IMG/VR virus record: IMGVR_UViG_2737471833_000010 | Span: 1-27,813 of that record | Length of the DNA stretch: 27,813 bases | Strand: one strand, 5' to 3' | Origin: a virus | Lineage: Duplodnaviria; Heunggongvirae; Uroviricota; Caudoviricetes | Shown: positions 14,065-18,485 of the stretch, piece after piece | Layout of the letters: every line of letters starts with the position of its first letter | How positions within the stretch are numbered: position 1 is the first letter of the stretch | The notes under the pieces: generated by a model | Database searches by the model: none | Seen by the model: the letters and a program-made list of their open reading frames with translations, nothing else | What the model was told of the DNA's origin: nothing | Position numbers and translations under genes: made by a program

Positions 14065-14233
14065 CCCATCCCAATCCATCCAATACCAGAAAGAAAGCGT
14101 CGAGCGGGCTTTAACGTGCGCTAACTGCGGTCAGAAGCTACATGTGCTGGAAGTTCACGTGTGCTCCGATTGCTGCGCAGAACTGATGAGCGATCCGAAT
14201 AGCTCAATGTACGAGGAAGAAGACGATGAGTGA
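14057..14233 (+). CDS. NinF-like zinc-ribbon protein (58 aa)
   Basis: Product [58 protein letters not shown]. Size and Cys pattern match lambda NinF as recalled. Overlaps its neighbours by 8 nt on each side. Confidence 0.5.
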   Translation: MLSPSQSIQYQKESVERALTCANCGQKLHVLEVHVCSDCCAELMSDPNSSMYEEEDDE

Positions 14234-14735
14234 TGTTAAAGAAAAAGATATCCCCGGCTTTGAGGGTATATATAAAGTAACTGAAAATGGAGACATCATT
14301 TCATGCCGTAAATCAAAAAAATTATCTCATGGCATTAAACCAGGAGGATATGCATTTGTCGGTCTGTATCCAGGTGGCGGGAAAAGACCATCATATAAAA
14401 TGGTTCACAGAATTGTTGCAGAAGTATTTATTGATAACCCAGATGGCAAACCGGAAGTTAATCACAAGGATGGAAATAAACTTAATAATAAAGTTGAAAA
14501 TCTTGAGTGGGTAACGCGAACAGAAAATGCGAAACATGGATTTGATTCCGGATTGCTTGTTCATGGGTTTAATCATCACTTCTGCAAACTAACGCCAGAA
14601 CAAGTGAAATCAATATATAAATCAAAAGGCAAATACAGAGATATAGCCAAAGAATTTGGTGTTTGTGCGCAGACAGTGTGCAACATAAAAAACAAATCAG
14701 CGTACCGACGTTTTTTGGAGGGTATTGATGTTTAG
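14226..14735 (+). CDS. HNH homing-type endonuclease (169 aa)
   Basis: HNH core ...VNHKDGNKLNNKVENLEWVTRTENAKHG... and a C-terminal basic DNA-binding region. The gene is conspicuously AT-rich relative to its neighbours. Confidence 0.8.
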   Translation: MSDVKEKDIPGFEGIYKVTENGDIISCRKSKKLSHGIKPGGYAFVGLYPGGGKRPSYKMVHRIVAEVFIDNPDGKPEVNHKDGNKLNNKVENLEWVTRTENAKHGFDSGLLVHGFNHHFCKLTPEQVKSIYKSKGKYRDIAKEFGVCAQTVCNIKNKSAYRRFLEGIDV

Positions 14736-15003
14736 AAGCAAAAAATGGCTTCAGGCAGTCAGGGATATTGAATTTTGCGTTCTTTGCGGAAGATACGGAG
14801 TTCAGGCCGCTCACAGAAATGAAGGGAAGGGGGTTGGGATTAAAGTAGATGATTGCCTTACTGCTGCGCTATGTGTTGATTGTCATTCAAGAATTGATAA
14901 TGGGAGAGATATGAGCAGGGAAGAGCGAAGGGCTGAAATGGATCGGGCCATTGTGCTTACCCTTAAAAAATTGGTTAACAATGGGAGGGTGTTTGTCCAA
15001 TGA
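14728..15003 (+). CDS. DUF1364-like (YbcO-type) protein (91 aa)
   Basis: GGAGG lies 7 nt upstream of the ATG at 14728. Cys/His pattern FCVLCGRYG...AAHRNEG...CVDCH. Precedes rusA, as ybcO-type genes do in related prophages (recalled). Confidence 0.55.
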   Translation: MFRSKKWLQAVRDIEFCVLCGRYGVQAAHRNEGKGVGIKVDDCLTAALCVDCHSRIDNGRDMSREERRAEMDRAIVLTLKKLVNNGRVFVQ

Positions 15004-15362
15004 ACGAATATCAGTTTGTGCTTCCATACCCGCCGTCGGTGAACACCTACTGGCGAAGACGGGGAAGCCAATATTACATAAGCGATAAAGGCCAGAAATA
15101 CCGAAAAGATGTACAGCAAATAATCCGCCAACTCAAGTTAGACATTTTCACCAAATCACGACTCCGCATCAAAGTCATCGCAGACGTTCCAGACTCCCGC
15201 CGCCGCGACCTCGATAACATCCTGAAAGGTTTACTCGATTCCCTTATCCACGCCGGATTTGCGGAAGACGACGAGCAATTCGATGACATTCGCGTAATTC
15301 GTGGTGTGAAAGTACCAGGCGGACGGCTTGGAATAAAAATCACCGAACTGGAGAACGTATGA
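15000..15362 (+). CDS. rusA: RusA Holliday-junction resolvase (120 aa)
   Basis: LPYPPSVNTYWRRRG...VPDSRRRDLDNILKGLLDSL...GGRLGIKITELENV parallels recalled E. coli RusA (…MPDRRRRDLDNLQKA…). ATGA coupling on both sides. Confidence 0.9.
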   Translation: MNEYQFVLPYPPSVNTYWRRRGSQYYISDKGQKYRKDVQQIIRQLKLDIFTKSRLRIKVIADVPDSRRRDLDNILKGLLDSLIHAGFAEDDEQFDDIRVIRGVKVPGGRLGIKITELENV

Positions 15363-15547
15363 ACGCCACAATTCAAACGATACCAGAGCTTCTTATCCAG
15401 ACACGAGGCAATCAGACCGAAGTGGCGAGGATGCTTTCCTGCGCAAGAGGAACAGTGCTCAAGTACAACCGAGACAGAAAAGGCGAGCGTCACGTAATAG
15501 TTAACGGCGTCCTGATGGTCAAACAGGGCAAGAGGGGAAGACGATGA
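15359..15547 (+). CDS. ninH: NinH-like small DNA-binding protein (62 aa)
   Basis: MNATIQTIPELLIQTRGNQTEVARMLSCARGTVLKYNRDRKGERHVIVNGVLMV resembles recalled lambda NinH (…GNQTEVARRLKCSRGTVRKY…). Confidence 0.65.
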   Translation: MNATIQTIPELLIQTRGNQTEVARMLSCARGTVLKYNRDRKGERHVIVNGVLMVKQGKRGRR

Positions 15548-16062
15548 GCATAAGAGAACTAAACCTCACCAAAGAGCAGCACGATTGGCTGAATGGATGG
15601 CTTGAACTGTGGGGCGCATGGGTTTATTCAGGTCGTCTGGAAAAGCGCATGAGCAGCGTAATAGCGAAGTTCATGGAGAGCGTAGAGCCGGGAAGAGTTA
15701 TGACAAGGCCAATGTGCAATGATGATGATGGAATGTTGATTTCTCAGGTCGTCGATTCCGTCATGTACATTGACAAGAAAGCCTTTGGCATCCTCCTCAG
15801 CTACTACGCTCATGGTTCATCTAAGCGAGCAATTGCATCCTACTATCACGCGACTGCAAAGCCACGCAAGATGTGTGGACGTGGTGGCGATGGATGGAGA
15901 AAACCTTCACTGGCAACCTGTAGAAACGAAATTGACGACATCCTGAAAGCGTCGTTATTTGTTTTGTACCAACCAATGCAAAATGCTTTCAAAATGCGTA
16001 AACGTGTTGAGAAAGTTAAGCATGTTGCTGTTAAAAGCCTTGACATGCAATTATCCATTTAG
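15544..16062 (+). CDS. Putative late-gene antiterminator Q (non-lambda Q family) (172 aa)
   Basis: Position immediately after ninH and immediately before a consensus-like promoter, a short terminated leader, tRNAs and lysis genes. Contains Cys/His clusters. The family is not verified. Confidence 0.55.
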   Translation: MSIRELNLTKEQHDWLNGWLELWGAWVYSGRLEKRMSSVIAKFMESVEPGRVMTRPMCNDDDGMLISQVVDSVMYIDKKAFGILLSYYAHGSSKRAIASYYHATAKPRKMCGRGGDGWRKPSLATCRNEIDDILKASLFVLYQPMQNAFKMRKRVEKVKHVAVKSLDMQLSI

Positions 16063-16069
16063 CCATAAT
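16040..16069 (+). promoter_or_regulatory. Candidate late promoter pR' (-35 TTGACA, -10 CATAAT, 18-nt spacer), with qut expected nearby
   Basis: TTGACA at 16040-16045 and CATAAT at 16064-16069, overlapping the 3-prime end of the Q-like gene. Confidence 0.4.
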
Positions 16070-16080
16070 TAGAAGGTAAG

Positions 16081-16122
16081 CTGCCGTTAGTGACTCTTAA
16101 GTTGCAACGGTGGCTTTTTTTT
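16081..16122 (+). terminator. Candidate tR'-like intrinsic terminator
   Basis: GC-containing stem (CCGTT...AACGG, with flanking pairs) followed by a run of eight T at 16115-16122. Lies about 10-50 nt downstream of the candidate pR' start. Confidence 0.45.
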
Positions 16123-16126
16123 GTTT

Positions 16127-16201
16127 GGGTCAGTCGTATAAAGGTCATTACGGAAGGCTGTTAACCTTCTTATCGTGGTTCGAGTCCACGCTGTCCCGCC
16201 A
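16127..16201 (+). tRNA. tRNA-like gene, possibly degenerate tRNA-Asn(GTT)
   Basis: Hand-folded: acceptor GGGTCAG/CTGTCCC with one T-T mismatch, weak D-arm, anticodon stem GAAGG/CCTTC with loop CTGTTAA, T-arm CGTGG-TTCGAGT-CCACG, then G-CCA. Could be a pseudo-tRNA. Confidence 0.35.
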
Positions 16202-16206
16202 AATAT

Positions 16207-16282
16207 GCTGGTTTAGCTCCAATGGTAGAGCAGTCGCCTTGTAAGCGAATGGGTAGCGGTTCAAGTCCGTTAACCAGCACCA
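16207..16282 (+). tRNA. tRNA, anticodon TGT (Thr) by hand folding
   Basis: 76 nt: acceptor GCTGGTT/AACCAGC, D-arm GCTC-CAATGGTA-GAGC, anticodon stem GTCGC/GCGAA with loop CTTGTAA (anticodon at 16240-16242), T-arm AGCGG-TTCAAGT-CCGTT, discriminator A and encoded CCA. Confidence 0.65.
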
Positions 16283-16524
16283 TAACTGAGCCGTAGCCAC
16301 TGACTATCCTGGATTCATCAGTGATAGTTACGCTGCGGCATTCTACGCATGACCTTCGTGAAAGCGGGTGGCAAGAGGTTGCGCTAACAACCTCATGCCG
16401 TTTTGCCCGTGCATATCGGTCACGAACAAATCTGATTACTAAACACAGTAGCCTGGATTTGTTCTATCAGTAATCGACCTTATTCCTAATTAAATAGAGC
16501 AAATCCCCTTATTGGGGGTAAGAC

Positions 16525-16848
16525 ATGAAGATGCCAGAAAAACATGACCTGTTAGCCGCCATTCTCGCGGCAAAGGAACAAGGCATCGGGGCAATCCTTG
16601 CGTTTGCAATGGCGTACCTTCGCGGCAGATATAATGGCTGTGCGTTTACAAAAACAGTAATCGACGCAACGATGTGCGCCATTATCGCCTGGTTCATTCG
16701 TGACCTTCTCGACTTCGCCGGACTAAGTAGCAACCTCGCTTATATAACGAGCGTGTTCATCGGCTACATCGGTACTGACTCGATTGGTTCGCTTATCAAA
16801 CGCTTCGCTGCTAAAAAAGCCGGAGTAGAAGATGGTGGAAATCAATAA
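16525..16848 (+). CDS. S: Holin S, lambda class I, with dual start (107/105 aa)
   Basis: [38 protein letters not shown]...[17 protein letters not shown] is near-identical to recalled lambda S. The Met1-Lys2-Met3 dual-start motif is present. Confidence 0.95.
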
Positions 16849-17308
16849 TCAACGTAAGGCGTTCCTCGATATGCTGGCGTGGTCAGAGGGAACTGATAAC
16901 GGACGACAGAAAACCAGAAATCATGGTTATGACGTCATTGTTGGCGGAGAGCTATTCACTGATTACTCCGATCACCCTCGCAAACTTGTCACGCTAAACC
17001 CAAAACTCAAATCAACAGCAGCCGGGCGCTATCAGCTTCTTTCCCGTTGGTGGGATGCCTACCGTAAGCAGCTTGGCCTGAAAGATTTCTCTCCGAAAAG
17101 CCAGGACGCTGTGGCATTGCAGCAGATTAAGGAACGTGGCGCTTTACCGATGATTGATCGCGGTGATATTCGTCAGGCTATCGACCGTTGCAGCAATATC
17201 TGGGCTTCACTTCCGGGGGCTGGTTATGGCCAGTTCGAGCATAAGGCTGACAGCCTGATTGCAAAATTCAAAGAAGCTGGCGGAACAGTCAGAGAGATTG
17301 AGGTATGA
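16832..17308 (+). CDS. R: Endolysin R (lytic transglycosylase) (158 aa)
   Basis: [51 protein letters not shown]... is near-identical to recalled lambda R. Confidence 0.95.
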
Positions 17309-17742
17309 GCAGAGTAACCGCGATTATCTCCGCTCTGGTTATCTGCATCATCGTCTGTCTGTCATGGGCTGTTAATCATTACCGTGATAACGCCATGACC
17401 TACAAAGAGCAGCGCGATAAGGCCGCATCCATCATCGCTGATATGCAGAAGCGTCAACGTGATGTAGCAGAACTCGACGCCAGATACACAAAGGAGCTTG
17501 CTGATGCTAACGCGACTATCGAAAGTCTCCGTACTGATGTCTCTGCTGGTCGTAAGCGCCTGCAAGTCGCCGCCACCTGTGCAAAGTCAACGACCGGAGC
17601 CAGCAGCATGGGCGATGGAGAAAGCCCAAGACTTACAGCAGATGCTGAACTCAATTATTACCGTCTCCGAAGTGGAATCGACAGGATAACCGCACAGGTT
17701 AACTACTTGCAGGAGTACATCAGGACGCAGTGCCTTCGATGA
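17305..17742 (+). CDS. Rz: i-spanin Rz (145 aa)
   Basis: N-terminus [30 protein letters not shown] matches recalled lambda Rz: a TM helix followed by a coiled-coil periplasmic domain. Confidence 0.9.
17504..17689 (+). CDS. Rz1: o-spanin Rz1 lipoprotein embedded in Rz (+1 frame) (61 aa)
   Basis: AAGGAG lies 7 nt upstream of the ATG at 17504. Signal peptide with lipobox LVVSAC, then a Pro-rich mature region. Embedded-in-Rz architecture as in lambda. Confidence 0.75.
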
Positions 17743-17963: not shown

Positions 17964-18485
17964 ATGACCCAGCATATTGGCGTAAAACTGATTAACGCCT
18001 TTCCGATGACGAGACAGGCATATAACGATTTTCGTGGCTGGCAGCTTCCTGCCGGAGAAAACGGCGAGGATGAAGGCTATCTGGTTGAATATCTTGATGG
18101 CGGAAAACCTAACACCGATCGCTTTGATGGCTACGTTAGCTGGAGTCCAAAAGAAGTATTCGAAAAGGCTTATCGTCCGGTATCAGGGCTAAGTTTCGGC
18201 CTTGCCATTGAAGCGCTCAAGTTGGGGAATAAAGTTTCCCGTGCTGGCTGGAATGGTAAGGGTATGTGGCTGGCATACGTTAAACCGTACACTGAGGCTG
18301 TTCATACTGGCAGTACGCCTTGCTTTTGCAGTCGCGTCTTTGAGTTGCCTGAAGGTACGCATGGAGAATCGAAACGATCTCCGAAACAACTTCCGTATAT
18401 CGCCATGAAAACAGCGGACGATAAATTAGTGCCGTGGCTGGCTAGTCAGACTGATGTTCTAGCAGAAGACTGGCAAATCATTTAA
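17964..18485 (+). CDS. Hypothetical protein (173 aa), possibly DUF2829-type
   Basis: Intact ORF with AGGT upstream of the ATG. Contains ...AGWNGKGMWL... The family assignment is from weak recollection. Confidence 0.5.
   Translation: MTQHIGVKLINAFPMTRQAYNDFRGWQLPAGENGEDEGYLVEYLDGGKPNTDRFDGYVSWSPKEVFEKAYRPVSGLSFGLAIEALKLGNKVSRAGWNGKGMWLAYVKPYTEAVHTGSTPCFCSRVFELPEGTHGESKRSPKQLPYIAMKTADDKLVPWLASQTDVLAEDWQII

Follow-up and report, generated by a model that had tools for sequence, protein, structure and literature searches.

The window analysed here is a DNA stretch of 27,813 nucleotides (nt) from a Caudoviricetes virus (IMG/VR record IMGVR_UViG_2737471833_000010, positions 1 to 27,813), and the region in question extends from the late antiterminator gene Q to the holin gene S. 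On the plus strand it holds, in this order, the Q gene, the late promoter pR' with a putative Q-binding element (QBE), a sigma-dependent pause element (SDPE), the intrinsic terminator tR', a tRNA-Asn gene, a tRNA-Thr gene, a conserved leader and the lysis genes S, R and Rz (Table 1). An earlier note on this DNA, made from the letters without database searches, had compared the order of Q, promoter, terminator and tRNAs with that of Shiga toxin (Stx) phages, and had regarded the roughly 240 base pairs (bp) between the second tRNA and S as an empty cargo slot. The architecture itself proved to be real, with every listed feature found. Judged by its sequence, however, the region is the known late-gene switch of a phage 21/Sf6-type prophage, consisting of Q with its promoter, a terminator and a pair of intact tRNA genes, and what had been regarded as a slot is a conserved leader of S.

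Table 1 Features of the late control region and the lysis genes in the window
Feature	Position	Strand	Basis
Q gene, late antiterminator, 172 amino acids (aa), Q21 family, L/Sf6 specificity subtype	15544-16062	+	phmmer, Pfam
Late promoter pR': -35 TTGACA (16040-16045), -10 CATAAT (16064-16069), 18-nt spacer	16040-16069	+	consensus scan
Putative QBE, tandem 8-mers AATTATCC/ATTTAGCC	16049-16064	+	alignment to phage 21 QBEu/QBEd
Transcription start (inferred)	~16076	+	alignment to the curated start site of phage 21
SDPE, TAAGCTG	16077-16083	+	identical sequence and same alignment columns as the curated phage 21 SDPE
tR' intrinsic terminator: hairpin (16078-16116) and eight T (16115-16122)	16078-16122	+	RNA fold
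tRNA-Asn, anticodon GUU, G73, encoded CCA	16127-16201	+	ARAGORN; Rfam, 55.3 bits
tRNA-Thr, anticodon UGU, G1-C72, C2-G71, A73, encoded CCA	16207-16282	+	ARAGORN; Rfam, 61.5 bits
Conserved 5' leader of lambda-type S (bsq3 boundary sequence)	16284-16524	+	lambda homology
Leader hairpin 1	16290-16339	+	fold; also in phage 21, where a T-run follows
Leader hairpin 2, core GAGGTTG/CAACCTC (16375-16394)	16364-16410	+	fold; kept in lambda
Leader hairpin 3, GAACAAATC ... GATTTGTTC	16424-16464	+	fold; almost invariant in 74 unique copies
Stem-loop ATCCCC-TTATT-GGGGGT, just 5' of the S dual start	16503-16519	+	fold; identical in lambda
Holin S, S107/S105 dual start ATGAAGATG, ATG at 16525 and 16531	16525-16848	+	Pfam
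R	16832-17308	+	annotation of the Sf6 homologue
Rz	17305-17742	+	annotation of the Sf6 homologue

The assignment of Q to the Q21 family was based on a phmmer match to the Q21 structures in PDB (6JNX/6P18; E-value 1.6e-91 over residues 1-162), in which residues 1-102 were almost identical to Q21 and the C-terminal third was divergent. The protein also matched the Pfam family Phage_antitermQ (PF06530) with an E-value of 1.6e-25 and 89.8 bits against a cutoff of 26. The promoter, which the earlier note had placed after the Q gene, is indeed consensus-like, fitting the sigma-70 consensus at 11 of 12 positions, but it overlaps the final 23 bases of the Q open reading frame (ORF). It aligned column for column with the curated pR'/QBE of phage 21. 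In the alignment, the 16-nt QBE of the window was identical to that of phage L, the L/Sf6 subtype; this same element has been proposed for Salmonella phage L, and the DNA-contacting residues of Q fall in the divergent C-terminal part of the protein (PMC8022706). The tR' hairpin with its eight T, recognised from the letters before, had a folding energy of -20.2 kcal/mol (z -4.4), a stability that 0 of 200 shuffled sequences reached. Its segment 16077-16114 is identical to the late terminator of phage 21, whose T-run departs by a single T and one other base; the label tR' is already present in the Sf6 and HK75 records.

Two tRNA-like genes had been proposed downstream of the terminator, one of them as a degenerate Asn-like tRNA. 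ARAGORN called exactly two tRNAs in the window, Asn followed by Thr, and both scored far above the gathering score of 29 of the Rfam family RF00005 (E-values of 1e-10 for tRNA-Asn and 3e-12 for tRNA-Thr). The identity elements used by the E. coli synthetases are GUU and G73 for Asn, and G1-C72, C2-G71, G35 and U36 for Thr. An alignment showed all of them to be present in the phage tRNAs and shared with asnT and thrU, and the anticodon loops, CUGUUAA in tRNA-Asn and CUUGUAA in tRNA-Thr, are the same as those of the host tRNAs. The two genes are only 58% (tRNA-Asn versus asnT) and 66% (tRNA-Thr versus thrU) identical to the E. coli genes, and are therefore no recent captures from the host. The tRNA-Asn carries the mismatches U4-U69 and U13-U22. 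It is base for base the same in phage 21 and phage L, as is the tRNA-Thr in phage 21. Across 33 loci, nucleotide diversity was 0.009 for tRNA-Asn and 0.010 for tRNA-Thr, compared with 0.10 for the 5-nt spacer between them and 0.04-0.06 for the adjacent leader. Both tRNAs are thus four to six times less variable than the flanking leader, which fits purifying selection. With its Rfam score, GUU anticodon, G73, encoded CCA and low diversity, the tRNA-Asn does not bear out the description as degenerate, and neither tRNA is so. A consensus scan detected no independent promoter for the tRNAs, that is, no further promoter-like site on the plus strand between pR' and S.

The 241-bp block that follows tRNA-Thr aligned with lambda 44945-45185, directly 5' of S, at 95.4% identity (95.7% over 16284-16560), and is 95-98% identical to its counterparts in lambda, HK75, CUS-3 and HK629. 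It was present in 132 phage records, 72 of which covered at least 80% of the block, and in phage CUS-3 the stretch is labelled boundary sequence bsq3. Mosaic breakpoints were located within the leader at about 16344/16354 and at 16509. Phage 21 shares only 16284-16344, HK97-type phages share only the part from 16354 on, and several Salmonella phages diverge after 16509, at the start of a different holin region. The fold of 16284-16430 reached -61.1 kcal/mol (z -6.1) and that of hairpin 2 -25.6 kcal/mol (z -4.6), with a weak GTTTTG tract after the inner stem of the latter. The short GAGGTTG/CAACCTC hairpin noticed earlier is present, though as the core of this longer hairpin. Among the 74 unique copies of the leader, substitutions in hairpin 2 were one-sided and some were pair-breaking. 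The stem-loop at 16503-16519 we take to be the lambda sdi element, which sets the S107/S105 ratio. An Rfam search at a permissive E-value over 15000-17500 returned the two tRNAs and a chance snoU85 match, and no known RNA family in the leader. The lysis genes gave Pfam matches to Phage_holin_3_1 (E 1e-29) and Phage_lysis (E 2e-36). The statement that the gap contains no ORF over 15 codons was not borne out, as a 50-codon GTG ORF occupies 16321-16473 on the plus strand and is labelled a hypothetical protein in some phage records. It was rejected as a gene, which it probably is not: of 68 homologous copies, 11 have a broken or startless frame, and the variable sites are distributed over the codon positions as 11/11/14, without a coding signature.

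The position at which late regions of this type vary was located by comparing the intervals from the Q stop to the S start. In pairwise comparisons among phages with a Q21-type Q, homology ended at the T-run of the terminator (16127) and restarted at 16284. The sequence in between is the tRNA pair in the window and in Sf6, and 177-294 bases of lambda-like leader in HK75, CUS-3 and HK629. A scan of IMG/VR with a 27-mer of the leader identified 120 loci, 111 of which had sufficient upstream sequence. Among these 111, tRNA-Asn and tRNA-Thr occurred together in 31 loci, and the other 80 were without any tRNA. The tRNA pair stood behind an L/Sf6-type QBE in 15 loci, behind a 21-type QBE in nine and behind the lambda-type 6S RNA terminator in seven. 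In all 31 the upstream junction was at the T-run, TTTTTTATTTGGGTCAG, and the end of tRNA-Thr abutted the leader block with no insertion between them. Q21 modules lacking the tRNAs were about equally numerous; in these, the distance from the terminator to the block was 161-303 nt, and it reached up to 588 nt behind lambda-type terminators. Length variation and insertions sit upstream of the leader block, 153-588 nt after the terminator. The tRNA pair thus represents an optional cassette in a variable position. An insertion of another kind was observed in HK629 (NC_019711; L004 1527-2230), where 704 bp directly after the pR' -10 element contain an HNH endonuclease gene, a TATGCT element and a terminator of their own, and push the original pause element and tR' hairpin about 700 bp downstream.

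Scars at this position occur in other phages and not in the window. In the Stx2c phage 2851 (NC_049943; L007 5298-5322), only the first 24 nt of tRNA-Asn follow a Q21-type Q, pR' and tR', after which come unrelated DNA, tRNA-Ile, two tRNA-Arg genes and stx2c. The stump marks a recombination junction inside the tRNA gene, and suggests that the late region of the Stx2c phage was fused to a module with tRNAs like that of phage 21. In HK75, the place where the 3' half of tRNA-Thr would lie is taken by a T-arm, GCCGGTTCGATTCCGGC, and an acceptor-like strand; Rfam scored this domain as tmRNA/tRNA-like below threshold (20 bits, E 7e-5). Furthermore, in 50 IMG/VR loci the tRNA-less late leaders contain a long-range closing helix whose end falls exactly at the position of the tRNA-Thr end of the window. 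This helix is TTGTGCTG/CAGCACAA in 25 loci, mostly with an 86-nt interior, and TTGTGGTG/CGCCACAA in the other 25, mostly with interiors of 121-220 nt, the two haplotypes differing by a perfectly linked G-C to C-G swap. These elements lie at L002 1728-1786 in HK75 and at about L005 1040-1145 in lambda (lambda 44840-44944). The closing helix and T-arm of the tRNA-less leaders may represent the remains of a tRNA or, alternatively, a processing signal that mimics one.

Comparison with characterised phages placed the window closest to phage 21 and Sf6. The phage 21 record (OL657228, 39506-39746) carries curated -35, QBEu/QBEd, -10, start, SDPE, terminator, tRNA-Asn and tRNA-Thr features in the same order and with the same spacing as in the window. 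The two share the Q family, the -35 element, the SDPE, the terminator hairpin, both tRNA genes and the first ~61 bp past tRNA-Thr, including hairpin 1. They differ in the QBE (AATTATCC/ATTTAGCC in the window and ATTGAGCA/AATGAGCA in phage 21), in the -10 element (CATAAT with an 18-nt spacer versus AACACT with a 17-nt spacer) and by one base in the 5-nt inter-tRNA spacer. Moreover, 119 bp past tRNA-Thr phage 21 has the S21 pinholin cassette instead of the lambda S leader of the window. Sf6 (NC_005344, 35980-36786), HF4s, Kapi1, vB_EcoP-720R6 and CurroJimenez are 97.5-98.3% identical to the window from Q through S. Sf6 shows only point differences and a T-run that is 2 nt shorter, and its record already marks the promoter, a qut site, tR', tRNA-Asn and tRNA-Thr as "similar to phage 21". 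Outside the late region, the window genome is a different mosaic from Sf6, in which the early region is CUS-3/HK97-like and the head genes are SfV-like. Published work on phage L (PMC8022706) describes a Q of this type, this QBE and a tRNA at this position, and also cites Asn/Thr tRNAs at this place in Sf6.

Among the remaining relatives, Salmonella phage L / ST64T (MW013502) is identical to the window in pR'/QBE, tR' and tRNA-Asn, but has a different leader and a different holin after its second tRNA. This second tRNA (L131 788-859), annotated as Leu(TAA), is a diverged copy of the tRNA-Thr gene of the window, with acceptor and T arms in common and the D and anticodon arms changed. Since it is a diverged copy that ARAGORN does not call, its function as a Leu-tRNA is doubtful. 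Lambda shares hairpin 2, hairpin 3 and the pre-S stem-loop within the 241-bp leader, with an A-A mismatch in the window at a G-C pair of lambda hairpin 2; upstream of the block, lambda has a tRNA-less leader after the 6S RNA terminator, and the window has tRNA-Thr. The parallel with Stx phages held for the layout. Phage 2851 has the same order of Q, pR', tR', tRNAs and late genes, and its Q, promoter and terminator are of the Q21 type, yet its tRNAs are Ile/Arg/Arg and are followed by stx2c and further ORFs, unlike the Asn/Thr pair of the window with no cargo and no scar. The observation that the tRNA set departs from the Ile/Arg set of Stx phages was thus correct. No similarity to phage 2851 was found past window position 16150. 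In a distant search with the Asn/Thr cassette (213 records), Stx phages were neither among the ten commonest organism groups nor among 40 sampled rows, and unrelated phages showed only generic tRNA similarity. The likeness to Stx phages is therefore one of general layout only: cargo, Ile/Arg tRNAs and scars were each looked for, and none was found in the window. Conversely, every sequence-level feature tested that defines the phage 21/Sf6-type late control module was detected.

Taken together, the region is very probably the standard late-operon control of the phage 21/Sf6 type in a lambdoid prophage, fused here to a lysis cassette of the lambda type. The mechanism of Q21 has been described (bioRxiv 10.1101/651190; PMC6606751). 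By homology with phage 21, pR' would be constitutive and RNA polymerase would pause at TAAGCT just past the start site. Q, bound at the tandem 8-mers that separate the -35 from the -10 element, would load onto the paused polymerase, which in its modified form would no longer stop at the tR' hairpin and T-run, 40 nt farther downstream. Because the tRNA genes start 4 nt past the T-run and no separate promoter-like site serves them, they would be made mainly within the Q-antiterminated late transcript, from which host tRNA-processing enzymes would presumably cut them out. Their likely role is to provide extra decoding capacity for Asn codons and the Thr codon ACA during late protein synthesis. 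The 241 bases past tRNA-Thr are a conserved, structured leader of S rather than a vacated site, and include a stem-loop that would set the choice between the S107 and S105 starts.

Codon usage was compared between late genes and host genes. In the 15 late ORFs of the window, ACA accounts for 19% of Thr codons (9.6 per 1000), compared with 10% (4.9 per 1000) in 48 K-12 genes (Fisher p 0.003), which lends modest support to a supply role of tRNA-Thr(UGU). Several points weigh against this account of the region. The ACA enrichment is only about twofold, so that the codon argument for a supply role is a modest one, and no bias in Asn codon choice was found between the same two gene sets (AAC 52% versus 58%, p 0.28). 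The tRNAs are dispensable, because they are absent from about half of the Q21-type late regions that are identical in other respects. For the homologous tRNAs, expression and excision from the late mRNA have been stated as not known (PMC8022706). The binding specificity of the QBE is one that we infer. In addition, a covariation test on the 74 unique copies detected no compensatory substitutions in the three leader hairpins, and since such pairs were not found, it is thermodynamics and conservation that argue for the leader structures.

Three other explanations were weighed against late-operon control of the phage 21/Sf6 type. According to the earlier note, the 240 bp from tRNA-Thr to S would be an Stx-type cargo site, either vacated by the loss of a toxin-like moron or not yet filled. 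Such a view can point to phage 2851, in which cargo, namely tRNA-Ile/Arg/Arg, stx2c and further ORFs, separates the tR' of a Q21-type module from the lysis genes, and to the differing leader lengths among relatives. These insertions and length changes, however, map upstream of the block, which tRNA-Thr abuts in every tRNA-bearing IMG/VR locus, and the truncated-tRNA scars belong to the Stx2c phage and HK75. No remnant of a foreign gene was found in 16284-16524, and the same 241 bp recur, nearly identical, as the leader of lambda, HK75, CUS-3 and HK629 and throughout the 132 records. The stretch is therefore a conserved spacer with no deletion scar, the very outcome that the earlier note had named in advance as contrary to its proposal, and we consider a cargo site here highly improbable. 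Still less credible is an anti-defence function, in which the phage tRNAs would replace host tRNAs cut by anticodon nucleases and would be kept for their differences from the host Asn and Thr tRNAs. In other phages, tRNAs do counter tRNA-cleaving defences, tRNA-Asn falls within the class cut by colicin E5, and the low identity to asnT and thrU would be in keeping with such a function. Nevertheless, known escape tRNAs differ in the anticodon loop, which here is that of the host, no tRNA-targeting system is linked to the locus, and about half of the related late regions do without the tRNAs.

An account that we regard as unlikely, if somewhat less so, is that the tRNAs serve chiefly as punctuation for RNA processing. 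RNase P and 3' excision would remove the qut/tR' leader, decoding would be secondary, and a defined 5' end a few nt before hairpin 1 could stabilise the lysis/late mRNA. The spacing would suit this, with tRNA-Asn 4 nt past the T-run and hairpin 1 starting 7 nt past the CCA of tRNA-Thr, and so would the tRNA-less leaders, which retain a closing helix at the tRNA-Thr end with its linked G-C to C-G swap (25 and 25 loci), as well as HK75, which keeps a T-arm at that position. The helix evidence, however, amounts to one linked change that may reflect a single evolutionary event, and the strictly conserved identity elements and anticodons are not required for a pure processing role. There is thus a small chance that the tRNA pair and the S leader form an RNA-processing unit in which excision sets the 5' end of the lysis/late mRNA just before hairpin 1. 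If this were true, tRNA-less relatives, lambda included, would keep the tRNA-like helix and T-arm to preserve cleavage, and the lambdoid late leader would hold a hitherto unrecognised tRNA-mimic processing signal.

Outside the late control region, further features of the window were observed. Directly after Rz, an ORF of 173 aa (17964-18485, plus strand) matched the Pfam Tad2-like domain (Thoeris anti-defense 2-like domain, PF11195; E 3e-25), and is a candidate anti-Thoeris gene in a moron position, with the lysis cassette on one side and the head genes on the other. An ORF of 169 aa (14226-14735, plus strand) carries HNH_3 and NUMOD4 domains and resembles a homing endonuclease; it is inserted within the nin region, 5' of a DUF968-like ORF and RusA. 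The window as a whole is a mosaic: CUS-3, HF4s and HK97 are similar to it in the early, nin and lysis regions (96-97% over about one third of the queried 3000-27813), and Shigella phage SfV is similar to it in the head and tail genes from about 19660 on (97.6%).

At least 80% of 16030-16530 was found in 283 of 5426 complete E. coli genomes, where PGAP calls tRNA-Asn and tRNA-Thr. The arrangement is already known from the annotation of phage 21, Sf6, L and Kapi1 and, through PGAP, from that of hundreds of E. coli genomes, and its value as a discovery is small. What is useful here is a correction: in this lineage, the late leader varies in the interval from the T-run of the terminator to the conserved S leader, which the tRNA pair occupies in the window. 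The 240-bp S leader itself should not be marked as an insertion site in scans of prophages.

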